64,000 nt of DNA from Psammoneis japonica (lineage: Eukaryota). Where the stretch lies: NCBI GenBank assembly GCA_008632985.1, contig QPGO01000077.1, positions 186,001-250,000 of the forward strand. Reading direction: 5' to 3'. Numbering within the stretch: the stretch's first letter is position 1; every line of letters starts with the position of its first letter. Below, one piece after another: positions 1 through 42,919 of the stretch. The translations under genes and the position numbers were made by a program. The notes under the pieces are model-generated. The model made no database searches, was not told where the DNA came from, and saw nothing but the letters and a program-made list of their open reading frames with translations.

Positions 1-2830
1 CATGCGTCTGCGTCTTTCAGGTGACTCAGAAAAGGTGTGGAAATGGTGACAGGCTGCACTGACAAACCTTGGCATGAAAGAACAAGACGCTGAAGGAGCG
101 GAGCGTGCTCCCACAGCCAAGACACCATTGGATGCCAGGACAGCTTCGATTTTTCGACTGTGGCAAACATCAGTCAACTCCTAAGATTCTTTGTTGTTGG
201 AAACAAAACAATCACCTCGGGACAACCACGGAGCAGTTCTTGACAAACAAAAGGCTTTTCAGAAGCTGCGCAAATGCCAAGAGAGTTTCAATCAGATGAC
301 GCTCAGCAACCACATCCAACTCAAAGAAAAGGCAGACAACAAAGAGAATGGTGCATCAGTGAATGATTTGTTGGAAAAGGTGAAGGGTGAATTGTCGCGC
401 ATTAAACAGAACAACAGAGCCAGGACTTGTCAAAAGCAGGCATGAGCTGCTGAAGCAGTCAGCACCCCAGAACTGACACGCAATGAAAGTGAAGTGGAAG
501 AAGTCGCCACAGACTTTCTTGACAGCAATTCTGTGCAAAGGCACCAGCTGACATCTGCAAAATGGTCCTCCAACAATCCAGCAGCATGCAAAGATTTGTT
601 TGGGTTTCAATCATTTCCAGAACTCAAGTTGATGGTGTCGGCTTTCTTTCGTGAGGTTCTTCTTGCAGTGCCAGATGCATGTTTTGACAAGAAGGGAAAA
701 AAGCTGAAATGTCATCCTCCAAAGCCAACAACACATTTGAGCAGGTTCTTGTCATCAAGTGCTTCATGCATTGTTGTCCTGTGTGAAAGCATGCAGGATG
801 GACCTTTGGCGTTGCGCGTTGAACCATTTCCGATTGCCTGGACCGTTGGGCACCTTGCTGGGCCACGCTTGGTGAGTTTCTATCCACACTTCCCACACAA
901 AGAAATTGTTTTGACAAGGAACGTCCAGATAAATTCATTGAACACAGACTGGAAAAGACTGGCTTTCTCATGGACGGCAAGGACACCTTCTTGACAGAAG
1001 CAAAGCGCAAGGATGATGCTGCATGTTGCAACCAACAAAGCAACAAAATGCATGGCTCAGCCACTTGATGGGTTAATTTTGTGTCATGTTGTGTGCTGAC
1101 TTGTGAGCACACTGGAGCATTTGGGGCAAGAGCCAAAGAGAATGCCCTTGTTGAAATGACAGGTGAATGCCCGGTTGAGACAGCACCATTGGCAGAATGG
1201 AAGGACCATGCTCTGAAGCATCCAAGTCATGAGATGTTGAAATGCTGGATGGCGCTTGATGATGTGGTGATGGGAAAGACTTTGGATGGTTTGACTGAGA
1301 CTGTTGCACCAGAGTCGCTTCATGCATTGTTGTCCTGTGTGAAAGCATGCAGGATGGACCTTTGGCGTTGCGCATTGAACCATTTCCGATTGCCTGGACC
1401 GTTGGGCACCTTGCTGGGCCACGCATGGTGAGTTTCCATCCACACTTCCCACACAAAGAAATTGTTTTGACAAGGAACGTCCAGATAAATTCATTGAACA
1501 CAGACTGGAAAAGACTGGCTTTCTCATGGATGGCAAGGACACCTTCTTGACAGAAGCAAAGCGCAAGGATGATGCTGCATGTTGCAACCAACAAAGCAAC
1601 AAAATGCATGGCTCAGCCACTTGATGGGTTAATTTTGTGTCATGTTGTGTGCTGACTCATGAGCACACTGGAGCATTTGGGGCAAGAGCCAAAGAGAATG
1701 CCCTTGTTGAAATGACAGGTGAATGCCTGGTTGAGACAGCACCATTGGCAGAATGGAAGGACCATGCTCTGAAGCATCCAAGTCACAAGATGTTGAAATG
1801 CTGGATGGCGCTTGATGATGTGGTGATGGGAAAGACTTTGGATGGTTTGACTGAGACTGTTGCACCAGAGTCGGAAGACGAGTTGAGCTTGGTTGAAGAG
1901 GGAGAGAGCAACAGAAGGAGACAAGGTGTGGTTTTGGATTTGTCAAATGCAGACTGGAGCAACATCGGATCTGAAAGTGACAAAAAGCTGGGTCTGCAGC
2001 AGTGATGAAAGAAGCACAGAAATGGATGATGATGACAATGAAGAACAAACGTCAGATGCTGTGGACTGTGGGAATGACAGCAAGTCAGGTGCGTGCAATG
2101 TCAGCGCTCTTGCACTGGCAGAATTGTGTTTCAACAAAAGGATGGATTTGCTTGACAAGGGAAAGAAACTTCAAGAGGAGGGGCTGAAAAAAAAAACTGC
2201 AATTGTCCAAGAAGATGAAGCAGAGGTTGCAGCATTGAACAAGAAGGCATTGGGAATGTTGCCTCAAAACTCCCCTGAGAGTTTTCTTCAGCAACTTGAA
2301 CTCCTGAAGCGTCTGCACCAGTTGCATGACAACAAATGTGTGGCCCAATGCATGCTCAGTGCATGTCGTGAAATGACAAAAGAGTTCTGTTGGGATGTTC
2401 TTTGCTGGTTGGGCAGTTCTTTGGCACCGGACGATTATGAGTTGACAATCAATGATGCACTGCCACAAGAAGTCCATCTTTGGTTGCACAAAATGCCACC
2501 CAACACAGAGTGCTTGGCAGACAAGGGGTTTGAGAAGACTGAGCAACTCATGCTGCACTTTCCCAGGGTGAGAACTCCTTGAGTGCTTTGGGCAAGGAAA
2601 GCAAAACAATTTGATGTTCTTGAGCTGGGTGACAAAAAGGATCTGTGCAGAATGCGACACCCAATGGAAACTTCCTTTTCTTGGCTTTCCACAAAGCAGG
2701 GTCTTTGTGACATGGTGCCACACAAGAACCTTTGCATGGTGCCCAAGCCCCTTTGAATGCCTGGAAGCAACAGTGGCCTGCCTGAAGACTGCTGGGACCA
2801 GCACTTCTCAACAAATGCAAACAGGGGTCC
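1..2830 (+). pseudogene. PIF/Harbinger-ISL2EU superfamily (DDE_Tnp_4-type) transposase, decayed; 5' end may lie outside the window
   Basis: Cross-frame translation gives HTH_Tnp_4-like 'TFGVAR*TISDCLDRW', first catalytic 'FLMDGKD', 'SNKMHGSA', 'FGARAKE', second catalytic 'CLADKGF' (Y->C), 'VRTP' and 'QFDVLE..RHPME'; multiple stops and frameshifts. Confidence 0.75.
761..1872 (+). repeat. 556-bp tandem duplication inside the transposase (761-1316 / 1317-1872)
   Basis: Direct comparison of the two copies; I found 7 differing sites. Confidence 0.95.
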
Positions 2831-2863
2831 ATTCATGCTTTGCTTGGTCTTTTCATGCTTTGC

Positions 2864-3560
2864 TCATGCAGCGCTGCACTTTGCCAACTCTTGACAAACA
2901 ATCAGTTCCACCAACATGGGCAGCTGATTGAGGGGTGACGGTGGCATTGCATCCTTGAACATCTCTCTGTCAACACACTGTTGCATTTGACGGAACATGC
3001 ACATCATCGCAAGAATGTGCAAACACATTGCTCGTCTGTCACAGCATCCGCAGCATGAAAATGGATGCTGCAACAGTTCCTTTGAGTCTCCATCAAACCC
3101 AACACAAAGAGAGTGTCCTTCTTGCATTTTCTTTGTCTCAGCTGACTCCTCATTGGATGATGCGATGTCTGTTTTCATTGACGGAATGCTTGCAGCTTGA
3201 AAGCCATGCCAACGACCCATCAACCAGTGTTTTGCACAATTGGAACTGTGTTGCATCAACAAGCAAGCTCCCTCATTGCAACAGCAACAGAGCACATTCA
3301 AGATTGTGTTTGTTGCCCTTTGGATAAAATTGTTGAATAAAATCCATGTCAGTTGGCATCAGTCAAGAAACCAGTGCAAAGCACTCATCATGATCCCACC
3401 TGTCAGTGTTGCTTGCAGGTTCCAACACTTCGTGAACCAGCCAATGCCCAATCTGCATTGGAGCCTCATCAGGGGGGAGCAAGCTTCTGCCGCATGCCAC
3501 AAGATCTGTGACTGTTGCTTCCAACTTCTGCCCATCCATCAGAGCATGCATTGTGGTGAT
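2864..3560 (-). pseudogene. SWIM zinc-finger accessory gene, convergent with the transposase (ISL2EU-type ORF2 C-terminus)
   Basis: 'SIPSMK...HSLCVGFD...FSCCGCCDRRAMCLHILA' matches the CxC-xn-CxH SWIM pattern preceded by a PSM motif; an upstream frame reads 'DFIQQFYPKGNKHN'; frameshifted. Confidence 0.6.
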
Positions 3561-4008
3561 TCATCCTGACCACCTTTCTCACAGGCAATTTTTAATGCCA
3601 TCACAGCACCAAATGTTGAGGTTTCAAACCTTGACAGTTGTGCACATGGTGACATTTTATTGAATGTCACAGTTCACAATTTTTCACTGTTGGAACCCAC
3701 CATTCCCTGTGGGATCCAACCCTCAACTGTGTGTGTTCTAATCATTCCACCTTCAGAATGCCGTCCCTTTTTACCTTTTCACTGCGATGTTCAAAACTTC
3801 TTTTAAATGACAAATTGCTGCTGATCACTGCATTTCATGGGTTTAAGGAAAGCTCCATTGCAAACACTGGTTGTCAAATGACAGTTTAGATCATGCAACA
3901 ATGACCACCAAAACACTTCATTGCCACGTCACAACTGTTTGCAATGAACACTAATGCATTGCTTGTCCGCTTTCCATTCTCACACTAACAAAAGGCTCCA
4001 CTGCTTTT

Positions 4009-5290
4009 TCACACCGCAGCTCGCCCATCATCTGAATCTACATTCTTTTTGCTTCCCTCATCACTTTCTTCATCCTCTTCTTCGCTGTCCTTGTCGCCTC
4101 TGTTCTTGTCCGTTACCTCTTCCTCCTTCTCCTCATTGTCACTTGAAAGCTTTAACGTTGCCTGTGTTCTTGCCTCCTTCCCCACTGGTTTTTTCTTTCT
4201 TTTTGCTCCCTTGCTTCTTTCGTCACTCTTCCTTTTCTTGCCTTTGCTGTGCCATGTGTTGAACTGCATGCCTTCCTCACTTGACCTGTCTTCCTTCACT
4301 TCTGCAAGCAGTTTGTTGAATTGCAACATCCCTTCATCCTTCCACGAGTCTTGCCACCTTGACGGGTCCGTGCACTTGGGTGTTGGTTCTGACTCTTCCT
4401 CATCCTCTTTGTCTGAGTCCCCCCCCCCCCCCCCCGCTCCAACAGTCTTTTCATGATGGGCCTTGTGCTCCAAACTCTTCCAGTGGTTGTCCAATGTCAA
4501 CAGCCCCAGAGCCTTGTTGCTTGCCGCAGTCAGACCGGGTGCCTTCATCTCAACGGACTCCACCTTCTTTCTCCATGTTGTGGTGCTCTTTGTGAATTTT
4601 AGGATGTTTTTGTAGAACCAAGCATCACAATTGTTGTCACTGTCTCCTCCTCCCAAGTTGCCAGGAGTGGTTCTTCATCCGCCGTCTGATCATTCTTCTT
4701 CCTCTTCTTCTTCTTCATTCCCCTTCCTCTTGCTGCTGGTTTCTTCTGACCATGTGTCTCCTCGGCTTTGTTCTCTGTCAACACAACTTCAGCAAATGAG
4801 GGCACAGCAGTGTCAAGCACGACCACACTCAACATGCAGTGCACCACAAAACACTTGCCAGCCATTGCATTGTTCTTGATCACCTGTGTGACGGTGCTCC
4901 TTTTTGTGTCAATTGCATGCATGACGCACTTCTTTGCCCAGTCTTCCCATGCTCCTGCCCAGTCTCACTTGCTGCAATTGCCACCGGCTGTCTTTTTCCT
5001 GATGAGCCGTGACACTTTGCCACTGCTTGCCATGTCCATCTTGACAAGGAACTTTGCCTTCGGGAACAGTTCCTTCCGTGCCACCTCTTCCACCTCTCTC
5101 TTCACAGACTGGTGATCCCCAGCAGCTCCCACCCACACCAATGCCGCTGTTGGCCTTGGGCTGGTTGGTTGATCTCCAGCCACCCCCACACTTTGTTTCT
5201 TCTTCTTCCTTGCCATTGCCTGTGCCTGTGCCGCTGTTGCAAATTGTCTGGTGGCTCTGTGCCTTGGGGCCCCAGTTTGTTTCACCATTG
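4009..5290 (-). pseudogene. Transposon accessory protein of the diatom 'SDEA..LL.LEN.W...KYT...GW..EG..RFN' type (Plavaka-associated), decayed
   Basis: 'LFPKAKF', 'SNKALGLLTLDNHW', 'PKCT', 'SWKDEGMLQFNKLLAEVKEDR', basic/acidic tail; probable intron at ~4788-4858. Confidence 0.55.
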
Positions 5291-5668
5291 CAAAAATTTC
5301 AAACCTCTCTTTTAACACTAAAAACCTGATGCTTTTCACCAATGATTCTCTTTTCTCAAAAGCAACATAAACAAGAATTAACCAAAACTTTTAGCGCATG
5401 CACAATTTGTCAATTTTGCCATTCCTCACCATCTTTTGAAAATTTCGAATCCATGCAAATTCCAGTTCAAACCTCTTTGTTGCTGCAATGTCAAAATCCA
5501 CTTCCACACTGTTCAACAACATGCACAAGTGTCTTGCTTAAAAAATCATTTTTAAGAGGTGCACCCACAAAAGTTGTTTTTGCTGCAATGAACAAACAAC
5601 ACACATGCTTTGATGACATTCTGGTTTCTCGCTTGTGCTGCAGTGCATCCATCCTTTTTGGTGCCAAA

Positions 5669-6877
5669 TCATTTTTTCCAGTCCACTTCGACATCTCCCT
5701 CCAACCTTGCAACTCTAAACCTGCTGTGACGCCCAACGTCAGAACAATCAGTCATGTGGATGAAAGCCGTTGTCTCTGCTTGGACACATCTCACGAAACT
5801 GTCTGCTTGAACATGCCACAGTCTCTCCACCCAATGCCTTTCCTCTCTCCTGGTTTGAAAATTCTGCCGCTCACAAATGACACCTGCATTCTCCTTTGCA
5901 ATTAAATCCCGCATCCATTCATTGACTGTCCTTGGAGACAATGGAAAGAACTCCATTTCCTCACAGAACCAAAGTCTTTCATGGCAGTCCTGCAAGATGT
6001 CATGCTGGAACCACTTCGCCAGTTTCAATGCATTGCAAACGATGACCTTGTTGTCCATCATGCCTCCCCAGGGTGATGTTTCTCCCAACAGTCCGCAAGT
6101 GCCCATCTTGTCCATTCCATAAGTTGGCAAGCTGATGCTCGACTTCTGTCTTAATGCCAAAATGTCTCTTGTGTCCATGACCAGTTTTGCATCGTCAAAC
6201 AAGGACCCCGCTGCAAATTCATCCCTCAGATCACTCTCTCCTTTGTTGTGGCAATGACTGTTGACACACCACATCCTTCCTTGCCTGTCTTGGTGCGTCG
6301 CGATGCAGCTCCAATGCTCCTTGCACTTGTGAGCATTGACCCCACGATTCATGACACTGTTCACCCAGTGCGGGTCATTGTGCATGGAGAACATGCGTGT
6401 GCTGGCATGCATGCACTCAATTGCTTTGTCACTCCATCCCTTCAAATGGTTGTGCACCCAAACCATGTGGTTGCATCTCTTCTTCCATTGTTCCTCCCAT
6501 GTTGACCGGCAATCATCATCATCCAAATGCCAATCTACACTGGAGAACACACGAAACAGGTCCATGCAGTCACGGTGGAGGTGAGGGTCAACTGCATGTT
6601 CAGCGCTCGCGCACTCAAACCAACTTCTACCAGTGTCATCAGAATTCACCGTCCCACCTGAGTCTGTTGATTTTGTCAATTGCTCCACTTCGTCAAAAGC
6701 CGCATCACACTCCGCTTGTGGCATGAGTTGTTTTCTCATGTTGTTTGTCATGTTTGTCAACGCATCAAATTTCTGCCAGCAGTCGTTTGGCCAACGGGCC
6801 ATCAATCTGTCATTTTGTACAACGACATTCATTGTTGACAATGATGTGTTCATCTTCTGCTGCAGGTGTGGGTGCAC
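5669..6877 (-). CDS. Transposon-associated 402-aa protein, possibly a Ulp1-like (C48) cysteine peptidase, hypermutated
   Basis: Long intact ORF with a single Tyr; 'HWSCIATHQDRQGRMWCVNS' (HW...YxD/NS-like) and 'MGTCGLL' (catalytic Cys-like). Confidence 0.35.
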   Translation of the reverse strand: MHPHLQQKMNTSLSTMNVVVQNDRLMARWPNDCWQKFDALTNMTNNMRKQLMPQAECDAAFDEVEQLTKSTDSGGTVNSDDTGRSWFECASAEHAVDPHLHRDCMDLFRVFSSVDWHLDDDDCRSTWEEQWKKRCNHMVWVHNHLKGWSDKAIECMHASTRMFSMHNDPHWVNSVMNRGVNAHKCKEHWSCIATHQDRQGRMWCVNSHCHNKGESDLRDEFAAGSLFDDAKLVMDTRDILALRQKSSISLPTYGMDKMGTCGLLGETSPWGGMMDNKVIVCNALKLAKWFQHDILQDCHERLWFCEEMEFFPLSPRTVNEWMRDLIAKENAGVICERQNFQTRREERHWVERLWHVQADSFVRCVQAETTAFIHMTDCSDVGRHSRFRVARLEGDVEVDWKK

Positions 6878-7343
6878 CCCTGCTGTGCTTTTTGCAGTGC
6901 AGCATCACGGTGAGGTGTGTCCACATTGCTTGTGACTGTCACATCACAACTTGCTTTCTCCTTTCCACAGAACAAAAACCTTTGCAATCTGTTGTTCATG
7001 CTCAAAGCAATCAATGATCCCAATGCATTTGATTCATTCCCACCTGTTGATGTTTTCATTGACAGGAAGAACGCAATGCACCCATGTTTTCACGCCAATT
7101 CGTGTCGTGTTTTCCTTGCTTTCTGCCACAATCATTTCACTTTTCACGATCTGAACCAGTGAGGCCCTTTGTCCACACATGTGTTTGTGGAGCCCACAAA
7201 CATCCCAATGTGTCCAAATGGAAGGAAACGCTGGTTGGCAGGTTGAGGATGGTGCGGTTGCATGTCCATGTTGCAAATGATCCTCCACGCGGACACTCAC
7301 CCATTTCCATCACAACCTGCAATGTTTTGCATTTGCTCGAGAG

Positions 7344-8008
7344 ATGTCAAACTTGTCGCATCGAGAGACAGTCGCAACCTGCCCATTGCCGGAGTTGTCC
7401 ATCAGCGTTGCAGCTCACACTTCTCCCGGCAGCAATGACATCTCTCGCAGACAGCGGTCAGCAGATCTTGACCTTTCTTCCTCATCAGATGACTTGTCAC
7501 CACCCCAGCTGAGGAGGTCCAGATGTGGTGCGTCTGTTGTGAACATCTGGCTTGGGCCAACTGCTGATGAACATGACCAAACCGATGCACTGTGGTCACC
7601 ACCATTTGATGATGACATTTCCCCTCTTGGGTCATGATGCAATCACGAGGAGAGCCATCACATGTCTGTGGACATGTTTTTGGAAGAAAGTGAGTCAGAC
7701 AGAAGCCAACTCGTTTGACGCGTTGCCAGATGTCACAATGGACGCCTCCGAAGTCACAAATCATGACGAATCAAACACCTCTGATGAAGACGAGGAATTG
7801 CTGAGTGATGACAGCCAATTGGGAAAGGTGCACCAGAGCCCAGCCAAAGATGCATTTGCCTGCTTGCCCTCTCTTGGCAACATCAACGGTGCTTGCGCAG
7901 AGCTTTGTAAGCTCACAGATGACTGCAGAGCACCGCTTCACCTGTGCGACAAGATCGCAAAGTTCATTGAAAGACACTGTGGCAGTGCATTCCAGATTGG
8001 CACACTGC
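7344..8008 (+). pseudogene. N-terminal fragment of a Plavaka-like transposase, truncated at ~8009
   Basis: Acidic N-terminal region, then 'CAELCKLTDDCRAPLHLCDKIAKFIERHC', which is the APLYLYD.I motif with Y->H/C changes; divergent from the accessory ORFs. Confidence 0.55.
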
Positions 8009-8100
8009 CAGAGGACTCAACCGGTCCCGGCATCCGTGACTGAAATTTCACCATGGTGAAGTGCGAGAGTCAAATCATTCGATTGGACTCAACCGGTCCC
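8009..8100. repeat. Putative element terminus: CAG start, 16-bp direct repeat GGACTCAACCGGTCCC (8013, 8085), palindrome TTCACCATGGTGAA (~8047)
   Basis: Seen directly; coincides with the truncation point of the Plavaka-like ORF. Confidence 0.5.
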
Positions 8101-8779
8101 GATTTTGCATCAAAAAGGCATGTTTTACTTTGATGCATCTCGCCATGGCATGCATCATTGGGTTGATGCATCTTTCATGGGGGATCTTTTTCTGCCATTG
8201 TTGTGAAGAGGTTGATGCATTGGTTTGGTTTTCTGGGGGGCTTTGGTTTTGACACATGGTGCAAACGGCAACATGCCTCGACTTGTGACTTGATTGCTGC
8301 AGGGTGCGTGCAACATGTGAATGGTCGACAATGTTGCGACGGTGAGTTCTCTTTGTGTTTTGTCAATTCATGTCATTTTCCCATTCACCAAAGATCATTG
8401 TTGTTTTTTGTTACAGCGTGTGAGGTCGATTGATCGTCTCGTACGGTCGATTGTTGCATCTGTGATGTTGGTGTCTTTCTCATGGCGTTTGCACCACCAC
8501 AGTGCATCCGTTTGGGAGCCTCATGCTTCGTCTCACTCTTTGTCCTTTGGCGCATCTATTTGTGCCATTTGTTTGGACTCGTGACAAGCTTGACATGTTT
8601 TTGGAGGTCTTGGTCGGCTCACAATCACAGCATGTCGTTTTTCGGTGACAACAATTTCATCGTGGAACCCCACAAATGTGCGGGGACCCGCAACCAGGAA
8701 ATGTGTGGAGTTGCACGTGCATGCATGGGGACCATTTACGTGGGTTTCATTGACCACTCAGTGGTTGGTGATTGCAGAC

Positions 8780-9465
8780 TTTTTCGTGTCGGTCCGGCAG
8801 TCGGGCAGTCGGGCAGTGGGGGGGTCGGGCAGTCGGGCAGTCGGGCAGTCGGGGGGTCGGGCAGTCGGGCAGTCGGGCAGTCGGGCAGTCGGGTTGTCCG
8901 TCTGAATTTGAAAGTGTGTCCCTTGGATTTTGAAAGGGCATGGGTTGTTCAGTGCAGATGAATTCTTCGGATTCTTGGAATTGTCATTGAGGACATGAGA
9001 GGTTGTGGGGACATCCTAAAAAATCGATAAATTCCCTACGACGGGTGCGTGGCACGGTTTTTCAGGAGAGCTCGAAAGTTCTGAAAAATTGGGATTGCCG
9101 GCGTGGCATGTTCAAAAATGTGTTCAGTTGTGTGCAAAGACAATTTATCGTGAATTCTACATGAAAAAGTCACATTGGGGAAAACACATCAAACAATGAG
9201 TGAGTTTGTGCGATGTGCCATTGTGGCGATAAATTGGAAAAAAAAGAGTGTCCGTGCACCTCGCTGCAGCCCCAAAAATGGCATGAGACATCAAATGTGA
9301 CGGTCATCCGCGTCACCGGTGCGGTGGCCACACCACTCAGCCACCACAATGCCTTCCCCGGCAGTGGGGCCCTGCGCACGTACAGGCAATGCAGCATGCA
9401 ACGGCACACACACACCCACACCCACAAAGAAAGACAAGTGGTCAATGCTCCCCACAGGCCTGGTT
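8780..9465. mobile_element. Dispersed repeat copy 1 (probable DNA-transposon terminus ending ...CAGGCCTGGTT)
   Basis: Colinear homology with 17755-18368; homology ends at the same motif in both copies. Confidence 0.85.
8795..8893 (+). repeat. 8-bp minisatellite (GTCGGGCA)n
   Basis: About 12 tandem units with some GGGGGG variants. Confidence 0.95.
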
Positions 9466-10241
9466 GTTCCAGAGCTGTCTCGCGAACTGCCAGGCGTTTT
9501 TTCGAAATTTTGTCGTAGAAACTGTGCCAGTTTTGCATGTGTGGGCTACGTTTTTCAGCGCCAAATACAAAAATGCACGTGGACCTCTACAGGAGGGTCC
9601 CCGCGCATTTGCGGGGTTCCTCGATGAAATTTCTTGACAGTGCATGCCGTGGGAACAAAACGATGCGATGGAGTCTCGGGGACACTCACGACGTTGGCAT
9701 TTGTCAGACAGCCTTGCCACAGTCCAAAGAAGGCAACACTGTGAGTGTGTTGTGAATGATTGAGTTTTGCACTCGTTTTGACGAAACTTGCACACCCAAC
9801 GAGCCTTTTTTGGTGCGCCTCGATCATGCGTGCAGGCATCTGGTCCTTTTTGACCCTTTCCACCTGCCCTTCAACCACATTGTCATCATTGTCTAAGACG
9901 CTGTATTGTCCACATTATTTTGGGAGATCTTTGTGGTGCAACTGCAACTCTGGGCTTTGCAATGGGTAAAATGTGAAGGTTGAGGCTTGTGTTGGCGGGC
10001 TCATTGCCTCCTCTTGAATGCGCTGATGCCACGAACCGCTGATGGCACTTGGGGGCATAAAAACTGGCAAGGCAACTCAGCTCTACCTTGAAAAGGTGCC
10101 CTGGTGAGTGTGCTGTGACATGTGACCACAATGGATTGTCATTGTGTGCGTTGTAAAACTCACATTTTCATTTTGCCTGTCATTTTCCAGCATGACTGTC
10201 TTGACCGTTAAAGCTTGCAGTGGCATTTCCAGGCCCATGTT

Positions 10242-13200
10242 CTACATGATCGATGTCTTTTGACAACACAGCAGTTGTTCGTTTGGGGAGTCAGGTGTGA
10301 ATCTTTCAGCATCTAGTTGGGTCCAGAGAGGTGTGCGTGATGGATGAAATGTGGACCAGGTTGTGGATGGAATTTGGCGCATGTGCCATTTTTCTCTACG
10401 GCAGAGTTGGCAAGTGCATGGGTGTGTGAGTCTGGATGGACTCTCTCTTGAGGGATGCTGCTCTAAAGTGCTTTGCTCTAGAGCAGAACTTGGTGCAAAA
10501 GGTGAGAGATCCATCATTTGTGATTTTCCACTCGTCGCGGCATTTTTGGCATTGTCCATTGACGACGGAAAGTTGGGTGATCCATTTGCAGGTGTGATTG
10601 TGTGGCTCTCAGCATTCTAGTTGTCTTTGAGGGTAGGATTGCACCACATGTCCTCCAGGAAGCATTGTCATTTGCTGCACAGCAGATGTTGCTTGAGGGT
10701 TCATGCATTGTCGCGGCACGGTGATGCTGTCGCTCTTGCTTCTGCGCACAGTCACACTGGAATTCATGCGATCATCTGTCAGTCAGCCAGCAGGACCGGC
10801 TCAGGCAGTGGGACTGGTTGAGTCAGCCAGCAGCAGGAGCAAACTCATGGAGAACCTTCACAAATCATTTCCTGGTCCCGAACGCGAGATGATTCCAGTT
10901 GACCTTGACAGCGTCACTGGGGAATGGGGTGAAATTTAGGGTCGTCGTCAACACCCTCCAAAATTTCACACTCGGTTAACCCACATGGCTTGCGGAGATG
11001 CTGGCCAGAGGGAGAGAAGGCAAACAGGTCTTGTCATGAACATGGTCCATGGAACACACAATCAAAAATGCAGGTGCAGCGATTGTTGGAATTCTCACAC
11101 AGTTTGTGCTCAGTTCCGTTCCAACTGTGCTCTTTGGTTCCTGTCTCTGATGATGTCCTTTGGTGCATGAGCGGCCTTTCTTCCAGTTTGACATGTCCCA
11201 GTTGTGCGGCAGCTCCGGAATTGAAGACAGGATGCACAATGTTGTTCAGTCTTGGATGGTCCTTCACTGCAACACCAGCTAGCACCAGACATTGCAGCAC
11301 CAACATGAGACAAATCTCACTAAAATCTGCTCCCCGGTCTGCCCAAGCATCACACGCCACCTTGCACCATTGTCCCATTAAATTGGGACAGAACTCATGG
11401 GTGTCGATGTTGTCGTTCACCCAGAGAAGTGCAGCATGGATTTTGTCCACCATTTTGTCAACTGGGTCATTTGCCGTGGCGACGTGCCTCTGGTCTAGAA
11501 ACACCTCCAAAAACTTCTCGTACGTCAAATTGGCAGGGCTGATCCTTCCAACCTGTGGGTCGCCGAACAACACGCCAAATGCATTCATCAAGCAATCAGC
11601 AAAATTCACAAACGGGTCCATGCCTTTGCAACAAAGGTTGGGCAGATGCTTGTCCCCCACATGGTAAAATCGGTGATGTCCAGTTGGATGACCCGCATGG
11701 ATCACCAACCGGATGACTCGTTTTGGGTCTGGCCCCAATCGGCACACAATGTTTTTGAAACTGCAGAGCACTGTGACTGGAGCAGACAAGTGAAAGTCCC
11801 TGACTGGGAATGTCGGGAACTTGAGCCAATCCATGTGCACCTTGGCGTGTGAAGATTCGCCGCCTCTGCCTGTCACAACATTGTCCCATGGCCTGTTGTC
11901 GTCAAGGGAAAGATGCTTGAATGCACTGCTGGAAAGCGACACGTTGGGGTGGGAGGGACCATTGTGTTGCAAGTCCAAGTCTTTAAGTGCAAAGTCAAGC
12001 TGAGCTTGACATGTCACACTGGTTGTCATGGCATTCACCAATGGTGGCTCTGCTGTTGGCAACAACCTTGAAGGACCATGTGTCGCCAAAGGCATCCACA
12101 ATAAAAAAACAACCTGTGGCTGTTTTCCTGTGTTGATGCCAGGTGCAGTTTTTGACGTCACAGTGACAATCACAGACTTGACCCCAGGAAATGCACAATC
12201 CCTGCATGGCAACGTCCTTGCGTTTAAAGAAAAGACAACCCATTTTGTTGCACAACTCTTTCGAATGCTCCTCGCACCAAAGCAACCAGTTGAATGGTGG
12301 CGGATTGCTCAGTTTCCTCAGCTCTACCTCGTTTTTGCAAGGCCAAATCAAGTCGAGAATGTCTGCTGCCATGGTCTTGATTTTGGAGGACTCGTTTGCG
12401 TCGAAGTCATCATCAGACTCAAAAACATGAAGTCTGCAGGTAGCCTTGGGCTTGGCAAGTTTGGCAGAGCCGGGCAACTTTGGATGATGCACTTGCCCTG
12501 CACAACCAAACTTTGTCCTGCATCCTTTGCCATTTTGAACTGCAACCGGTCCATCATGACTCAAATTGGACTCACCCTTCAACAAAACAAATGGCAGAAG
12601 GGCAGGAATGCACACACAAAGGCACCCAAAGTGCCCTTTTTGCAGAGAGTTAGCTTGTCAGGCAATGGAGAGTTCCTCGGAGAAGTGATCAAGGTGAGGA
12701 GGGTGCTTGGTTTGGACACGAGATGCGGCGACGGAATCACACAAAGAAGTTTTGTTTGAGAAAGTGTGTCAGTTTTCCTGCAAGTTGTCTGCCAGGCAAA
12801 AGTTGGCGGCAGAATGATGAAGCACACGATCAGTGTTGGTGGCTTTGCCAATGATGTGCAGGTGTGACAAATGAGAAACAACTTCCTTGGAGGTGGTGGG
12901 CCGACACTTGGATGGATCAAAGTGATTGCGGAGTGTGGACTTGTCCAGCCACGACATGTCATTGGGGTTGATGGGAGGAGATGCATCCACAGGAGGATTT
13001 GCCAAAACAGATGGAGGAGAGGAGTGCCGTTTCGAGGGAGCACCTTTGGAGGCAGGAGAAGGTTTTTGGTTTTCCATGATTTCTGAGAGTGACAGAAGGT
13101 CGGCAGTGAGAGTCTGGTGCACCTCCCCAGACAATGCAACATCACCAGACAACAAAGGAGGTGCTGGTTTTGGGTGAGATGCAGGCTTGGCCTTCTTGTT

Positions 13201-14679
13201 GGGGACAGTCAAGGAAGGCTCTGGTGGGGCATGTGCAATCACAGGGTGTGAGGAGGTGCCGTGAGACAACAGATGCAGGCAGAAGGTTGAAGGCAGGAGG
13301 TGGGGGGGGGGGGGGGGGGGTGCTCACCATCGCACAAACAGGTGCCATCTTTGCAGATCCTCTTAATTTTGCATTTGGTTTTAGATTTGTGCTCTCGTTT
13401 GTTGTCATCTTCCAAGCAGTTGGCCCTCTGATCACGCATTCTGCAACAAAGCATTGTGAGCCGCTTGCTGCACCTGGGTTGGATGCCAGTTTGCTCCTTG
13501 GGACAACGCTTCCCAAATTCATGATTCAACATGGAATTGATTTTTTCTTTGTGTGCCTCCTGGCATGCAAGGGAATTGCCTTGCATTGTCGCTGTGTTCT
13601 CAATGTCACCGATTTGGTCACCAAGGAACCCCTTGATCTCATCTGCCTGGGAACCAGGATCATTGGTGTCGCACACAACCAGCAAGCTGTTGACAAACAG
13701 GTGCCATTTCTTTTGGGTGTTGACATGACAAAAAATCTTCAGGAACCAACAATTTGTGTCCTTTGGTTTGTGCTGAACGTAACGCATGACAATGTCAGTG
13801 ACAAAGCATGCACCATGGAGGTCTTGGGCTCGTTCGTTGATCAAATTTTGGAGACTTTTGCAACTTAAAAATTGGAAACAAGGCTGACCAGATGCGGGAT
13901 CATTTGGGTCGTTGCTGGTGATGATCACATGGACAAATTCTGCCATTGCCCAGATGTTGCGGTGGAGAAGCATGTGGTTCTGCTGTTCTTTTTCTGTCTC
14001 TCTGGACATTTTGGAGAAATGGAGAGCCTCCTTGAGATTTTTGTGTCGAAGGACACACTCACCTTTCAGCGCGCAAGATTTCTCAATGGACCAACCTTGA
14101 GTCATGATGCAGGACCAAATGTTGGGACAGCCAAGAGTTTTCCTTACAATGTCATTGGTGCGGATAATTTCAGCAACATGTGAAACACAACGTAACTTTG
14201 GCTTGTGACAAAGGAAGGGAAGAGCAAGGAATTCTGGAGAGGGGGTCCAATTTGTCATCTCCAAAAACTGCTTTTTGGATGCACGCGTTGCGATTGTGCT
14301 TTTGAGCTTGGGTCCAAACAATTTGAATCCAAAACCATTGGTGAAACATTCCATTTCATCAAAACTGCAGTCCTCTTGGCAAATTGGAAGGAAGGGTCAG
14401 GGTCGACCTTGTCGTCAGACGGGGTGAAGCAGTTGGCCACCATGGCCAACAGTCAGTTGCCGATTCACATAGAATGTGCAGGAATTGCAACAGTGCACAC
14501 TCTTGTCAAATGTGTTTTGGGGAGAGGATGTGCTGTTGTGAAACAGGTGGAGCATTGTGCATGCAGAAAATGCAACAAAATCCAGGTGGGGAGCTGTTGA
14601 CTGGAGTTCTGGTGGGTGCAGGTGAAAAACAATGAGCCAAGTGCTCATGTGGCCAACTTGGGCGTAGAAGAAATGCCAT
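10242..14679 (-). pseudogene. Large (~1,400-codon) decayed transposon-borne gene: N-terminal C2H2-like finger, Pro-rich linker, HxDxxN motif and a helical domain with an E-h-x-LCE motif
   Basis: Consecutive minus-strand ORFs 13239-14354, 12769-13269, 11995-12615 and 11034-12212 join through frameshifts; motifs 'CIFC...HILSPKH', 'CHCDVKN', 'SGAAAQL...TEHKLCE...DCVFHG..QDLF'. Confidence 0.55.
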
Positions 14680-14918
14680 CCTCTGTGGTGGTGCAAGAGT
14701 GTGTTGGAGCCATTGAAAAGAACTGTCAAAGTTAACGTTCAATAAATTTGTCAAAACAAAACTTATTTTTCGCAAATGAAACACATGTTGAAAGTCATTG
14801 GCAAATTTAAATCAAAACAAAACGGTGACAATTACACACATAAAAAGGCAACAACAATTTCAACATGACTCTCATCTTTGCAAGTGAAGTTTAAACATGA
14901 CAACATGCTTGCACACCA

Positions 14919-16242
14919 TCAAATGTTCCGAACAAGACAAAGGAAAGTGAGCACCACTGTGTTGCAGCCTCTGATGTCCACTGCAATGGGGCACCCCATC
15001 CGAGCTGATGTCCAACACTGCAGCACATCCGTTGGCATGCATTCCACCGGAACTGCATCAAAGTTTAATTGTGCATGCATGGGAAGCTCTTTTCCTTCTG
15101 CTTTGGCATTCTCAAGAGCACTGCACGTGGGTGTTGGAAACATCTCAGTGGTGCACCATTCAGAAATGTTGGGCCTTTGAATCAACACGCTCATTTGTAG
15201 TCTGCAGCGGACACAGGAAGCAACTGAAACGGATCGAACCCTGTCAGGTCAGTCCAACCCTGACAACCTGTGTCTGAATTAAGAGGAGTCAATGGGACTA
15301 AATTTCCATGCTCATTGAGTGCAGGGCAATGATTGAACAGTGCAATGGCATGGTCAAAATTCTTCGTGCAATTGTCAGGGATCAACATGGTTCTGAATTC
15401 ACCCACAACAGCCTCTGCAACGCAAGCACCAGAAAAATCATCATCAAGCCTCGGCAGAATCCTCTTGAATGTTTTTTTGAAACCAATGTTGTGCACCAAA
15501 CTACAGCAATCAGACCCAAGAAGATTTGCCATCGCTGCCCAATGTTCAAAATCAAAAGCAGTGATGGGACAATGTTTTGGAGGCAGAAAGTCCTTCTGAT
15601 TGTAGACCTTCCATGTGTCATTCTTTGTGCCAGTCTTGAAAGGAACCATTTTGGCACCCAGTGTGATTGTGTCTCTGTCTTCTGTCATTGCTGCATCAAT
15701 CCGGCCTTCTGCTTCCATCTTAAGTGGCTGGTGCTCTCGGCCTTGAATGGTGCACAGTCAAAAAGGATTCCCTCAGGCTCCATCCACTCTTTTGTCAAAT
15801 GAGATGTCATGTCAGGATTGGGACTACAAAGATCTCTTGTGCATTTCAGAGACTCTCCACAGTCAGACTTGCAAATGGGAGACCCAGCCTTTCCTTTTGC
15901 AACATGCTCCTCCAACCACTTCTTTGCTTTGTTTGTCTTTTTGTCTCAGGTCTCTCTTGCAACGCTCTTCATGGGATGCCGAAATCCATCAAAGACAGAG
16001 AATGGAGTGATGCTGGCAGAGACAAGCTTCCAGTGGCTTGACTGCAGTGATGCCAATGAACTCTTCAGTGGATGCGCAGGATTGGCCATCAATCACCGTG
16101 TGGTGGCATCAGTGTGGCAAGCCTCATGGAGCCACACTGATGCATCAATCCCAACCGTCTGCCCTTCTGTGTGTCAAAAAGGCATTGATTTGCTTTTGTT
16201 GACAGCGCCAAGCACCTCAATCCAAAGCTCCCTGATTCCCAT
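14919..16242 (-). pseudogene. EXO1-like XPG/FEN1-family 5' nuclease, decayed, inside the repeat domain
   Basis: 'MGIRELW...GQTVGIDASVWLH...ITPFSVFDGFRHPMK' (XPG-N); 'CAPFKAE...GRIDAAMTEDRD' (XPG-I); 'LLGSDCC..HNIGFKK' (H3TH, with DY->DC); in-frame TGA stops consistent with CGA->TGA. Confidence 0.85.
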
Positions 16243-16819
16243 GGTCAACACAGCCACTGCAAGAATGACAGTGCTGCTGATGATGTGGGCAAGAAATTCT
16301 GAAATCTCAGAAACTCCCCCAAAATCTTCTCGAGTGTGACGCGTGCATCTGGCACATGCCACCACTGCTTGTGAAGGATGAATCCTCATGTGGCGGCATC
16401 TTTTTTTACACAGCTTGTGATTTTTCAACTTTCTTGCATTTTGCAATGCCTCTGAGCACCCCTGAGCACTTGTGAGTGTGCCCAACTCCCATCAGGGCCG
16501 ACAGACATGCACTTAAGCTGCACTTGTCAGTGGTTGTTGTGCTCAACAAACTGCTCTTTTCACCAAAGTCATGCTGCTTGTGGCTTGTGGCAAAGAACAA
16601 GCCACAACTTTGCAGAAATGCTGGCAATTGAGGGTGCACAGCTGGCTGCTGCAAACATGCCCATGACTGCCAACCAGGGTGCCCCGGACCCCTGCACAAA
16701 GCACAACTGGGGCACTCAACAATGTTGCCTCTTGTTGGGAGCACCAAATCAAGCCAAATGTTGCTTCTGAAGCTGATCTTGCTGTCAAGCAAAAAGCCAC
16801 TGAAGACATGCTCTCCAGC

Positions 16820-17754: not shown

Positions 17755-18368
17755 TTTTTTCGTGCGTTGGGGGGTCAGGCGGGGGTCCGCCCATCCAAAT
17801 TTGAGAGTGTGTCCCTTGGATTTTAGAATGGCATGCGTTGTTTAGTGCAAACAAATTGTTCAGATTCAGAGAATGATCATTGAGGACATTGGAGGTTGCG
17901 GGGACATCCTTAAAAAATTGACAAATTCTCTGCGACAGGTGCCCGGAACTGTGTTTTCTAGAAGAGCTCAAAAGTGCTGTAAAATTGGGATTGCCGGCAT
18001 GGCATGTTGAAAAATGTGTTGAGCTTTGCACAAAGAGAATTTGTTGTGAATTGCACATGAAACAATCATGTTGGAAAAAAACATCGAACTGACAACAAGT
18101 GAGTTTGTGCAATGCGCCATTTTGGCAACAAATTGGGGAAAAAAGAAAGAGTGTCCATGCACCTCACTGCAGCCCCAAAAATGGCATGAGCCATCAAATG
18201 TGATGGTCATCTATGAGAACAGTGTGGTGGCCATGCCACTCTGCTGCTGCAGTGCTGGCCCCGGCGGCAGGGCCCTGCACATGTGTGCAGGCAATGCAGT
18301 GTGTGCAACAGCACACACCCACACCCGCAAAGAAAGACAAGTGGTCAATGCTCCCTGCAGGCCTGGTT
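17755..18368. mobile_element. Dispersed repeat copy 2 (homologue of 8780-9465)
   Basis: Direct alignment; this copy has lost more TA and CG sites than copy 1. Confidence 0.85.
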
Positions 18369-23545: not shown

Positions 23546-24063
23546 CCAATGGCAATGGCGCAGAAGGAGGGAGAATGAAGAGAACTGTTTTGTTTTGTTG
23601 GCTGACGCGCCTTTGTTGTGCAAGATGTTGGATTCTAAGCTCTTTACTTCTATCATAATTTATAAGCTTAAGAAAACCAGTTTTTGATCTTTGCTTTACA
23701 TTTTACCTTTTTCGGTTGTCTACAACGTGACTTGCAACACACTTGAGCCAGACGAGAGAGCACGAACTTTTGTCATGAGGTGCTCATGAGCTTTGCGGAT
23801 TTTGGGCGCTTGCGCTGTAGCTCTGTCGGTTCGTGGTCGGTTATGTTCGTGGGCCGGCCGCGGCCGCAATGGCGTCGAAGCGAAGGCGTTTCAGCGTCAC
23901 AGTATATCGAAACGAAACGGAGTGCCTCCCGTCAAGCTGATTATTGTACCTCGCTTAAAATTAGCTTGCTTCAGTTGAAGTACTGTTACGCCTGAGAGCA
24001 TACGTAGAAAGCCAACAGAGCTGCAAAGATACCTGACGATTCGACAACAACAAAAAATTGAAC

Positions 24064-25071
24064 ATGGGCGAAGAGGAAATTCGTCTAGACTGTTGGACGG
24101 GGTCGATCCCAATTGTGTTGAGTTTGGCACCGACATCACTCTCATCTCCAACAATGCCTCCTCCTATACACGTGATGCTGTCTCGAATGACTCTTTTGCA
24201 CGTGGGGCTTCGGAGCGCCGTGATGCGTCTCCACAAATTTGCTCCCGCTGTCATCTCCATCAAGGGTGGAATACGCAACGAACCTGATCCGGGTACCGAC
24301 ATGCCGTCATGTGATGAAGAGCAGACGTCGACTACCACTGTAATTGAATCTTCTACAAAAGACTATCCAGTGTGCTGGTTTGAAGATGAAGAAACACAAA
24401 TCGCGTTACGTTGGCATGTGTTTGTTGGAGTGTTGTTTGATTTGAAACGACGCAACAAGGGAAGAGCAGCACTGCCTTGGAAAATACGCTTGCATTTCAC
24501 GTCGTATCCCTCGAGTCAGATTCTACCAATCGATACGACGGACGGCGTTTGGACGACTATGGAACGCACGGTTATGAATTCTCTCAAGCAATCTCTTTTT
24601 CTGCAACACGGTTCCTCCAAAGTTGCCATGAACATGTCAAAACAGTCACACCATCGAGTATGGGATTCTATTGTTACATCAAATTATCAGTTGTATCGCC
24701 AAGTCAATCCTGATTTGCAAGCCAAATGTGCTCCTTCGGGAGGCAGAAATAGTGGGGTGCAGTCATTTCCTGTGCGACTCTTGATCGATTCCAAACCGCC
24801 AATACAACGACCGTGTCCCGCATATTGCAGAGAAACTGATGCAACAAAATCAGCTGATCAAGAGGCGCCCTATACTCTAGGAGCCTTGTTGGCAGATTGG
24901 AGTCCTGAGTTATTTGTGGTCCAGCCGGATGGATCTGTCACCCCCGAATCAAATCATGTCGTGTACTGCGTGCAAGGAATCGAACCACCATTGTCGTCAT
25001 TCATTCAAGACCTATGGTCATGTCTCTGTCACCCCGATCATTTTTTGTACATTGTCGTCACGACAAGATGA
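24064..25071 (+). CDS. ATG5: Autophagy protein 5
   Basis: 'WTGSIP', 'WFE...LRWHVFVGVLFDL', 'LPWKIRLHF', 'NSLKQS', 'VQGIEPP', 'HPDHFLYIVV'; intact and intronless. Confidence 0.93.
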   Translation: MGEEEIRLDCWTGSIPIVLSLAPTSLSSPTMPPPIHVMLSRMTLLHVGLRSAVMRLHKFAPAVISIKGGIRNEPDPGTDMPSCDEEQTSTTTVIESSTKDYPVCWFEDEETQIALRWHVFVGVLFDLKRRNKGRAALPWKIRLHFTSYPSSQILPIDTTDGVWTTMERTVMNSLKQSLFLQHGSSKVAMNMSKQSHHRVWDSIVTSNYQLYRQVNPDLQAKCAPSGGRNSGVQSFPVRLLIDSKPPIQRPCPAYCRETDATKSADQEAPYTLGALLADWSPELFVVQPDGSVTPESNHVVYCVQGIEPPLSSFIQDLWSCLCHPDHFLYIVVTTR

Positions 25072-25284
25072 TCTTACAAAGGTGGCAAAGAATGCTCTCT
25101 TTTTCCTTCGGGTGCCTCTTGCACGGTCGCTATTCAAGGCGATTTTCAGTCGGAGGTCGAACTCGTTCCTCCTGGCGTGCCACAAATGCGACAATACAAT
25201 TTTTATAGAGGCTTATCCTTTGCTTAATAGAAAGGGAGTGTGTTCATTCGTTTTTCTTGCAATATCTCTTCTGCCGGTAACTAC

Positions 25285-25289
<5 letters not shown>

Positions 25290-25319
<30 letters not shown>
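25290..25319. repeat. (CT)n microsatellite
   Basis: Seen directly between two convergent genes. Confidence 0.95.
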
Positions 25320-25320
<1 letters not shown>

Positions 25321-25366
25321 GTAGAGAGAAGTACAACTAGAATCACGTATCATATAATTTGCAGTT

Positions 25367-26894
25367 CTACTCGCTTGATGCCGTGGGCGTTTTCCCACAG
25401 ACCCACGGATGATTCTTGACCTCTATAAGCGACAAACGCTTCCGTGGATCTTCCATGAACATGCTTTGCAACAAATCAGTAGCCTCCTCGCTCACTTCTC
25501 TGTTCCAAGCTCGAAGCATCCGTCCTAGCTGCCCAGATACCACCATTCGAAACCGTGGGTCTTCTGGTAGAGCCACCTCCCACGGGGGCAATCCAACTAG
25601 CATGATGAACAGTACAACAGCAGCTGACCACAAATCCACGGCAAATCCATCAAATGCCTTGCGGCCTTCCAGCAATTCTGGGCTAGCGTAGATTGGATTA
25701 CGACCACAGTGTGCCAACGGCTTGATGAGACGACGCAAATGTCCACCAGACGCGTCTGTTACTTCACCCTCGTCTCCTGCAAACGGAACACGGAGGTACA
25801 TGCCGAAACTTGGAATAACAACGGCAGTGCGATACTTATCAACTAAAATATTCTCAAGCGTTATATCTCCATGACACAGTCCGACTCTTTGTAGATGTGC
25901 CAATGCCTATATGTGCGGTAGCAATCAAAATGCAAGAGAAAAAACAAAGCACCATGAAAATGGAAAGATTCGTTACATCATACAGCAGCAGATAGCCAGA
26001 GGAGAACACAACTCACCTCTAATATGTGTTTGAACCAATACCGTGCCATTTCTTCCGGAAATCTTCCTGCCTGACATACAAATCCAAATAAGTCACCAGA
26101 CGAGCAAAATGGCATAAATACGAGCAAGTAGTCGTCGTCTTTGAGGATATCAATGGCACCCAATAGGTGTGGATGGACGCCATCCCTTGAAACATGTTGC
26201 ATGACAGCCACTTCCTTTTCGGGATCTTCAAAATGCAGGTCTCGTATCTTTTGCCATGACATTATCTTTACAGCTGCTTTCTCCTCTGTCACCTCCCATT
26301 GTACATCGTGCATATCGTTTCGAGACTTTAGGACCGTGCACGACTTGACTACGCCGAAGATGCACTTTTTCAGTTTTCGTCCAATCCAATAGGCTCGTTC
26401 AGGAGGGCTACCGTCCGGATGTCGCTCGTAGATGACATTCTTTACCTCCAATACATCCTCTGTTACAGGATTGTACACAGCCGCATCAATGCGTTCCGCT
26501 CGTCCAACAACTGCCGGATCGAATGCCAGAGGCGCTAGAGGCGGACCTGAGTTTTCAATGTCAGTGAAGGAAGCTGCGGCATTTTCGAGAAACGCTGCTT
26601 CCCTGTTGAAATCGGGTCCACTCTTCAGTTTAGACGGTGTGACGATGATGCTTTCTCTTTCAGATCTTTTGCTACTACTGTTTTCGACTGCAAGCGGTTC
26701 CTCAGCGGACACATCAGCAGCTTCATGGTCTGCGGCAACACACAATAACCAAAGGAATGATGGAATCGGCGAAGAAGGCAGAGAAATACGATTAAAAGGA
26801 AGAATTAATAAGAACGAGAACGTATCCTCGACTCACTCATGCATGCATTGTTGAGGTCCCCACTTAATTTTGCCTCATGATTATTCACCTCCAT
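25367..26894 (-). CDS. Ser/Thr protein kinase (CAMK-like diatom family), probable pseudokinase; exons 26894-26837, 26729-26017, 25906-25367
   Basis: AAVK, HGDITLEN, YASPE and DLWS motifs; two phase-consistent GTGAGT...AG introns. Confidence 0.85.
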
Positions 26895-30130: not shown

Positions 30131-30595
30131 CATGAAAAGCGGTGACAAGATGGCTCAATTTGCACCGTCAAATGACCAAAATTGAAAATGACCGTTCTTT
30201 TCTTTTGTGGTCGTAAAAGAAGTGCTTTCGGCACTCGCACATACAACACTGTGTAAAAAATGCAAACGAACGAGCGCGGTCACCACATTGTGACCTTTGG
30301 TTGTCGAAGATTGAAGATTTATGCCGATAAAATATAAATGACAACCGATCATGAGAGACATTGTGGTCGCACGGCGGAGAATGTCCATTCCTACTTACTG
30401 GAGAGCTAGTAGATAGTCCTGTACAGGATCGTAGAGGGTCATCGGTCATCGACGACCAAAACTTGCATTGCAACCTGCACCTTGTGCATGTGCGAGCAAC
30501 GAAATAACAGGAGAGAAGAGCAATCAACGACGAAAAGCCACTGAAGAGCAATTAAGATATTGTCACAGATGAATAACAAATACCAGATTACCATA

Positions 30596-41474: not shown

Positions 41475-42919
41475 TTTACATTTTTGTGAATTTGAGAGTT
41501 TCAGTCAAATAACATCGAAAAAAGATTAGCCAACCATCGAAGCGCGTCTCAGGCTGAAGTAAAAATAGAATGAATTAAAACTGCAACAGTGACAGCAACA
41601 ACATCAAAAGATACACCGTAAATGTCACACTTCACACTTCACACTCGAACATTGGTCTGGCAAGAGATTTCGGCATGTGGGAAGAATGAAAGAGGTGGCC
41701 GCCGGAGGCGGCCCAGAAGAATAAACTGAAAAGGAGAAAAGGAGAAGAGAGAGAGGAAAAGAAGGAAAAAGGAGAAAAAGAGAAGATGCTGTGGGGCTGT
41801 CAACTTTCGGCCCTTGGCTGGGCTTCTGCCTGCAAAGCAGCTTGTCTGTGACTTGAGGTGCTGCGGTTTTACATGCTTGGCAGCAAAGCTCCCACAGCGT
41901 GCTGGAGAACTGTGGAGTTGTGCCAGTCTGTGGCACAGCTTGACAGCGGCATCTTTTGTGAGGAGTGCTTTGCTGCCAGCCCATCATGGCTTTTTGGGCA
42001 GCTTGTTTTCCAAGCCTTGCCCTGCCAGCTTGGTGGCCACTGCCGCGGATCTGTGTCTTCTTTGTTCTCCAAAATTCAGTGCACACTTTGGCGGGTTTGG
42101 CCCCAGCACTGTGTCCAAACAATTCTCTGAAGTTTCCAAGTGAGAAAATGCAGCATCATCCTCTTTCAAAGATCTTCACAAAGATCCCTGGCAACAAGCA
42201 CTGGCCTTCCCCACCCATGCTGTCAGAAGTGCCTGCCTTGACAAATTCACAGCATCTCTCCCAAAGCATCTGTGGATGCTGCACCCAAATTTTGGCCCCA
42301 TGCATCACAAAATCTTGAGAGAATTTGCAAGATCCACCCCATCACGCACCGCCACCTTTGGGTTTCCAGTGCAGCCATGGCTTCTGCAGCAGGCTGTTAA
42401 CAAACATGCAAAGCAAGTTCCCACTGGGACCTCAAATTGACCTGCAGCCTTCTTCATTCCGGCTGCACCCCTGCTTGAATTCTGGGTGGCCAGCTGAGCA
42501 AAACCTGGCTCTGTCTGTGTTTCTCAGTCCATGTTTCTGGCTTTGTCACATGTGGTGCAAAGTGCCCTCAGGAAAATGCTTGCAGCTGTGCTTGCCCAAT
42601 GCTGTCCCATCAGCCAGTGCCTTGTGGCGCAGCCCAGTGCTTTGCTTGCCAGCTCTCCACTGCAAGCTCCTTGTGGCTGGTCTGGTGTCTTCAAGAAGCA
42701 AACCACACACCCCATTCTTGCCCAAAGAGGGGGGGGCAATCAGACCGATGCACATGCCTGAAAGACACCCTGTGTCATCAGGAGGTTCCACGATGAAAAC
42801 GAGTGAGACGAATGAACAACACCACATCAGCTGCAACGTGCAAAGTGGGAACGAGATTTTGCGAGCAGTTGTCTGTTGTCTTGGTTGTTGCGAGTGTTGC
42901 GCGAAGTCTTGTTGATGTC

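Follow-up and report, generated by a model that had tools for sequence, protein, structure and literature searches.

A putative two-gene PHIS-type transposon of Psammoneis japonica pairs a DDE transposase with an EXO1-fold nuclease

The stretch of 64,000 nucleotides analysed here (hereafter the window) probably holds one dead copy of a ~5-kb two-gene PHIS transposon, in which a gene for an EXO1-fold nuclease-SAP-SWIM protein converges with that of a DDE transposase, the two proteins presumably working as one complex whose nuclease clears the 5' strand. The reading draws on the window copy itself (Table 1), related loci of the same genome, and homologous proteins from other diatoms and microbial eukaryotes.

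The split accessory gene of the window copy

The original prediction had described an intronless EXO1-like pseudogene ending in a SAP-like peptide and, separately, a SWIM gene that converges on a transposase and stops soon after its finger, and each of these observations was confirmed. The EXO1-like frame, on the minus strand from an ATG at 16242 down to 14977, lacks introns, belongs to the XPG/EXO1 family and is decayed, showing TGA stops in frame, a frameshift near each of 15736 and 15135, and K in place of one catalytic E; once the stops had been replaced by X, Pfam recognized XPG_N (E 3.2e-8) and XPG_I (E 1.6e-4), and the frame stops just after the SAP-like peptide quoted earlier. The SWIM-type frame (3358-2864, minus strand) carries a frameshift near 3195 and a CxC..CxH finger at about 3017-3056, faces the plus-strand transposase remnant, and reaches its stop ~55-60 codons past the finger; intact relatives end 22-100 aa past the SWIM region.

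Judged from their sequences, the EXO1-like and SWIM pieces are two halves of one gene in one dead element, split by a later insertion. P0001 (at C499), a diverged paralog, preserves one 660-codon frame with two stops that contains XPG_N, XPG_I, the SAP-like peptide and the SWIM finger. The EXO1-like piece covers its residues 1-424 and ends at 14976/14977, and the SWIM piece covers residue 424 onward from 3536. Because the halves are exactly complementary, abut at one residue and flank an insertion junction with a 2-bp duplication, they represent a single copy rather than two. The proposal that both fragments are halves of one EXO1-SAP-SWIM accessory protein is thus supported by the single frame of P0001 and by the same layout in relatives, but its attribution of them to two copies fails, as residues 1-424 and 424-640 are divided by one insertion with a duplicated TC, which rules out two separate copies. 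A host EXO1 pseudogene was likewise ruled out: the host's own EXO1 stands elsewhere, as a 965-codon frame at C39, and the tree rejects a joint clade.

Table 1. Features of the window copy, its nested insertion and the flanking repeat (positions in the window)
Feature	Positions	Strand	Remarks
Decayed transposase, probably PHIS-type	1..2894	+	HTH, D1 973-975 (duplicated 1529-1531), M, D2 2520-2522, E 2667-2669
556-bp tandem duplication within transposase remnant	761..1872	+	99% over 300 bp compared
M domain, helical, between first and second catalytic D	2151..2381	+	HMM match E 2.4e-8
Accessory gene, 3' part: rest of SAP-like motif, beta-sheet module, SWIM finger	2864..3536	-	46-57% to P0001 residues 424-640
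Nested element with terminal inverted repeats, unrelated, splitting the accessory gene	3537..14976	.	CATCAGAG ends, TC duplicated, 11.4 kb
Accessory gene, 5' part: XPG_N, XPG_I and H3TH core, linker, first SAP-like helix	14977..16242	-	47-56% to P0001 residues 1-424
Right terminal inverted repeat	16300..16370	-	imperfect, two-part, begins AAGCAGTGG
Repeat earlier taken as terminal	17791..18368	.	80% over 576 bp to 8898-9465; outside this element

Nested insertion and element ends

The same nested element interrupts the XPG gene in two further loci (L055 and L056). Its long frames (5669-6904, 11034-12308 and 13239-14396) matched no Pfam family. Searching the genome at the DNA level yielded 40 matches, comprising the window, four diverged nuclease copies and 35 to the short end of another repeat; the right end of the nested element is repeated at 35 other genome places. 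Both fragments had also been thought to share a terminal repeat to their right. This repeat is real (80%, 576 bp), but neither copy marks a terminus of the element: the copy at 8898-9465 belongs to a ~1-kb secondary stretch that is missing where L055 and L056 carry the paralogous nested element, and the second copy is found 1.4 kb outside the right end of the element at 16370. An 8-bp tandem array with the unit GTCGGGCA (8776-8914) adjoins the first repeat copy inside the ~1-kb secondary insertion.

The left terminal inverted repeat was located 314 bp left of the window (L039:9188), so that the original element, measured between its two ends and minus the 11.4-kb insertion, was ~5 kb long. Terminal inverted repeats are imperfect at both ends of the window copy and of L031/32, extend over ~350 bp at 80% in L062, and were found at both ends in families A, B, D and E. 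In family D, AT stands directly outside the repeat at 15/16 ends, preceded by C at 13, A at 2 and T at 1. This flanking AT fits an ISL2EU-type AT duplication, although it may instead belong to the terminus. The ends of family A fit AT or TA once TpA mutation is allowed for, and the ends of the window copy, read inward, both fit TAA rather than TAA/TTA. Termini read AAGCAG or AGCAG in family A and AGACG or CATAGACG in family D; a start with GG was not encountered.

A probable PHIS-type transposase with an interrupted core

The frame of the window transposase starts ~150 bp left of the window. Its D1, K, D2, P, R and E follow one another in the sequence and with the spacings of the PHIS motif D(19-29)K(29)D(18-40)D(11-19)P(18-28)R(3)E, as given in the accessible part of Han et al. 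2014 (PMC4122938), the third position of the motif being E. The gap leading to D2 differs among families: it is normal in L070/L077, reaches ~250 aa including M between D1 and D2 in the window's family, and spans two genes in family D. In sister families, a homolog of the M domain forms the C-terminal tail of the nuclease protein. In addition, the transposase N-terminus is Cys/His-rich, without a Pfam THAP match.

The assignment of this transposase to DDE_Tnp_4 was not upheld. The Pfam model was matched by neither the window pieces nor the best-kept paralog, the window is absent among the 23 matches in the genome, and a link exists only indirectly, via relatives. Among 64 relatives, the C-halves of two (P0063 and P0134, in both of which this half follows nuclease and M domains) matched DDE_Tnp_4, P0063 only at profile positions 67-151. 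The core of P0189, a protein restricted to the first transposase half, had DDE_Tnp_4/HTH_Tnp_4 clusters as its nearest neighbours, at 0.95, and hhalign of this half against a canonical ISL2EU transposase gave a weak match (probability 0.5%, E 0.11). The transposase tree was mostly unresolved, with the M lineage supported at 84/95 and standing apart from the Harbinger-like L117. Of the residues specific to the ISL2EU group (Y, L, S, I, H and R), those provisionally placed around the catalytic E (I, H and R) are, by eye, missing from the M lineage and present in L092. The window transposase is probably of PHIS type and not strictly ISL2EU.

Pairing of nuclease and transposase genes across the genome

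A protein search of the genome returned 78 matches (67/81 candidates scored), and linkage was counted over 27 fetched loci belonging to the window's family and two sister families. XPG and SWIM share a strand at 15/27 of these loci, and 20/27 have a piece of the transposase on the other strand (one marginal, E 7e-4), compared with 0/5 host XPG-family loci; at the remaining 7/27 the transposase was absent from the stretch fetched. The reverse search placed a nuclease gene (XPG/SWIM) beside the transposase C-half at 19/20 loci. C61:293k carries a transposase without a nuclease. Copies with both frames fully open were not found in this genome, and even the young copy L062 has one stop and two frameshifts. 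YqaJ (PF09588) yielded 0 candidates in the search of this genome.

Several family-D derivatives (L063, L065, L066, L068, L076, L111 and L112) are young and internally deleted, with nuclease ends 92-98% identical, and their sequences suggest recent mobilisation. Beyond these families, a convergent XPG-like gene accompanies 5/14 fetched DDE_Tnp_4 loci of this genome (of the 23 matches). In a second lineage (L118, L119, L120, L122 and L126), the ISL2EU-type transposase is uninterrupted and the XPG gene convergent with it is more distant; the partner gene of L120 shows, by eye, a SAP-like stretch and a SWIM-like motif. The tandem element at L080:2011-6503 (C131) encodes a PIN/XPG-like domain, a zinc finger and a SWIM-like motif, followed on that strand by a THAP-like DDE transposase.

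Three layouts of the same modules

The families can be described with four modules: N, the first half of the transposase with D1; C, its second half with D2 and E; M, the helical domain; and X, the nuclease-SAP-SWIM part. Three layouts were found, namely N-C with X-M, N with X-M-C, and N-M-C with X, the last being that of the window. At L058/L070 and L077 (N-C with X-M), the transposase core is uninterrupted and M resides on the nuclease gene. At L062, L075 and L079 (N with X-M-C), gene 1 ends after the first half of the core, and M, D2 and E reside on the nuclease gene, so that the DDE triad is, by sequence, divided between two genes in these copies. An intron in the family-D nuclease was excluded because L075 reads through, and the breaks in L062 are therefore lesions.

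Full-length N-only proteins from other samples (P0187-P0189) end at the same motif as L079, and whole X-M-C proteins were recovered as P0021, P0063 and P0134. The linkage of the N and X-M-C genes refers to three copies of this genome, the outside relatives being proteins without DNA context. An M homolog was present on the nuclease tail in 19 of the best 150 matches of the profile search, and in shallow word-index searches (2 matches for P0001, 0 for the P0004 region) no close relative of the fused family-D protein turned up intact. Two internal inversions, one of C and one of M-C, could interconvert these layouts of convergent genes.

Nuclease active site, fold and phylogeny

Seven catalytic acids accompany XPG_N, XPG_I and H3TH in intact relatives; in the window copy the nuclease is broken. 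In the conservation set of 64 relatives, chosen for length, the seven acids are kept in 47/48, 50/53, 54/55, 54/55, 57/57, 57/57 and 61/61 non-gap rows, and the four SWIM ligands in 62-63 of 63-64 rows. These relatives are only 18-30% identical to the first alignment row, yet all seven acids are near-invariant. Pfam detected SWIM in 7/64 relatives and the SAP-like motif as Ish1 (HeH/Ish1) in 5/64, PF02037 in none, and found no Myb match in the partner proteins. The alignment-based model of P0063 (pLDDT 77.8; the single-sequence fold, at pLDDT 33, was unusable) matched human EXO1 with Z 29.6 and rmsd 3.4 over 336, and its residues 514-631 matched ZSWIM8 with Z 8.2 and rmsd 2.9 over 98; SAP-like helices were placed at 435-443 and 456-468. 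The C-half was modelled at pLDDT under 60, and fold searches with M and the C-half gave no clear match, M drawing only generic helical ones at Z about 6.

In a tree of 30 rows, hand-picked from 75 to span clades, 19 element nucleases separated from host EXO1, FEN1 and XPG with support 98/98, and the window nuclease grouped with P0001 (99/91) and Attheya (100/99). Forcing the window and host EXO1 into one clade was rejected (p-AU 7e-87). The EXO1-like copy thus does not cluster with host EXO1, and the original prediction withstood its refuting test. The L092 nuclease fell among EXO1s on a long, compositionally biased branch, and that of L080 lies outside the main element clade, also on a long branch. 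Since both are placed outside the main clade, more than one nuclease capture is possible, and the capture, as far as the tree reaches, may not be single.

Outside this genome, a complete transcript-derived protein of Attheya septentrionalis, named 'Exonuclease 1', has the same XPG-SAP-SWIM layout. A profile search of 1.84 billion representatives gave, among its best 150 matches, 46 that combine the SWIM region with a long match to XPG (26 short-tailed, 17 long-tailed and 3 with the C-half). An XPG cluster of 111 members in the Atlas, most frequent in diatoms, contains this SWIM part; its next structural neighbours include eukaryotic YqaJ proteins, the SWIM-bearing part of which resembles that of the cluster at TM 0.57, a value under the tool's family-naming bar. 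Of 17 metagenome loci, four (L092, L093, L094 and L099) combine an XPG match with ISL2EU-type transposase motifs, and in L092 and L099 DDE_Tnp_4 is matched and the transposase and XPG genes are convergent. Modules can be lost, as P0153 appears without SAP-SWIM. One metagenome protein of 1211+ aa (L087:210-3842) runs from XPG-SAP-SWIM-M into a weak Ulp1/C48 peptidase match (E 0.08).

Sequence surroundings

The first 23 kb of the window are strongly depleted in TpA (O/E 0.05-0.18) and CpG (O/E 0.07-0.78), identifying the region as an old transposon graveyard. In the old copies at 1-23000 and 42000-46000, TpA loss exceeds CpG loss, with O/E down to 0.05. Between the young L062 and the older L075, 159/185 TA sites differ, 123 of them as TG or CA, compared with 129/225 CG sites. 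This pattern looks like a repeat-directed TA->TG/CA mutation process, for which the literature search returned no paper. Host genes for ATG5 and a protein kinase (24037-26832) mark the end of the mutated region. Separate from the element, very long plus-strand frames at 30545-41474 are built on a 108/36-bp tandem repeat and are Pro/Ser-rich and surface-protein-like. Beside a family-B copy, a 1145-codon frame (L057:668-4102) resembles, by eye, a tyrosine recombinase (Crypton-type) with a C-terminal peptidase-like part.

Proposed mechanism and alternative explanations

DDE enzymes nick DNA and join 3' ends, and Rad2-family enzymes cleave 5' flaps and carry out 5'-end resection. In the reading proposed here, the transposase would nick and join the 3' ends, and the tethered nuclease would clear away the flanking 5' strand, or 5' flaps, during excision or integration, which is the job proposed for YqaJ in ISL2EU. 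Both proteins would act together in a single M-docked complex, as suggested by the exchange of M and C between their genes; the gain of transposase domains by the nuclease gene likewise points to one complex. In the families with N and X-M-C, the DDE site would have to assemble from two chains. The occurrence of two unrelated 5' nuclease folds on the same SWIM module argues that 5'-end processing is the selected function.

A broader proposition, which we advance tentatively and whose chances fall a little short of even, is that a widespread PHIS lineage of microbial eukaryotes uses an obligate two-chain transposase with EXO1-fold 5'-end processing, its triad naturally split in some active families and incapable of cutting without the nuclease. 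If true, 5'-end processing by a second nuclease would be a core step of ISL2EU-type transposition, and the system would offer a direct test of the role of YqaJ. A naturally split DDE site would be unusual and could be tested with two expressed genes.

In the main alternative, the nuclease could act after excision, with 5'->3' resection of the donor break leading to homologous repair that recopies the element and so multiplies it. EXO1, to which the nuclease is closest in fold, carries out resection, and lambda-type exonucleases such as YqaJ drive annealing, both of which favour this course, as does the presence of several unrelated accessory nucleases in Kolobok lineages in the accessible text of PMC9587614. 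However, the exchange of M and of the catalytic C-half suggests a nuclease situated within the transposase complex, an arrangement that leaves its timing unfixed, and we regard action after excision as rather unlikely. It is improbable that the second protein serves solely for DNA binding or structure, through SAP, SWIM and M and in the manner of Myb, with the nuclease domain as a passenger: Harbinger transposition does need its Myb partner, according to the accessible part of PMC9179366, and modules can be lost as in P0153, but all seven catalytic acids are near-invariant at 18-30% identity. Despite the dense transposon graveyard and the genuine XPG family matches, a captured host EXO1 pseudogene, or pieces from two separate copies, is scarcely credible given the separate host EXO1 at C39, the tree rejection and the abutment of the pieces with a 2-bp duplication.

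Comparison with known transposons and nucleases

The second gene of ISL2EU and its relatives has a role described as an open question in the accessible part of PMC4482050. Compared with ISL2EU as presented in the accessible literature, the present elements share two genes (transposase and nuclease), the PHIS motif order, an HTH before the core, a size of about 5 kb, AT-flanked ends in most copies, and a SWIM module whose structure resembles the one in eukaryotic YqaJ proteins. In contrast, their nuclease has an XPG/EXO1 fold N-terminal to SAP-SWIM, without YqaJ; their core is interrupted by ~250 aa or split over two genes; they lack the RIHVER motif, and their termini are not GG. The hosts also differ, as the present elements occur in diatoms and other microbial eukaryotes, whereas those given for ISL2EU in the accessible part of Han et al. 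2015 (PMC4482050) are animals only. The original prediction of an ISL2EU-like element with EXO1 in place of YqaJ is therefore right as to a PHIS transposase with an XPG-SAP-SWIM partner, but not as to the ISL2EU hallmarks; with three of these lacking (YqaJ, GG ends and group residues), the elements are best placed as a sister lineage within PHIS rather than in ISL2EU. Its suggestion that the fold swap preserves the activity is conjectural. They differ from PIF/Harbinger in a partner without Myb/SANT, and the 3-bp TWA duplication was not observed.

A literature search, with Repbase, subscription journals and supplements outside its reach, revealed no account of a PHIS element with an XPG partner or of a DDE core divided between genes. 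Accessory-nuclease swaps are already known in Kolobok; the pairing of an XPG nuclease with a PHIS transposase is undescribed in the literature found, so far as the accessible texts extend. KolobokE, D and P resemble the present elements in having unrelated nuclease folds as accessory modules, but differ in belonging to another transposase superfamily with a TTAA target, and XPG has 0 occurrences in the accessible text (PMC9587614). AcademX encodes a nuclease as well, according to the accessible part of PMC10045372. It differs in an unrelated transposase, a 3-4-bp target duplication and the absence of PHIS motifs. We take its nuclease to be XPG-type, which would make AcademX a DNA transposon with an XPG-type nuclease.

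Human EXO1 (PDB 5uzv, 3qea) is the best sequence and structure match of the nuclease domain; however, host EXO1 is without SAP-SWIM-M, is unlinked to a transposase and lies outside the element clade. Diatom proteins labelled 'Exonuclease 1' (e.g. P0011) can consequently be transposon genes, which affects repair-gene counts. In bacterial Tn7, the DDE subunit TnsB handles the 3' ends and a second nuclease, TnsA, with a restriction-enzyme fold, handles the 5' ends. TnsA/TnsB may thus serve as a works-like model, with no homology claimed, for how the two proteins of the present elements could divide the strands between them.
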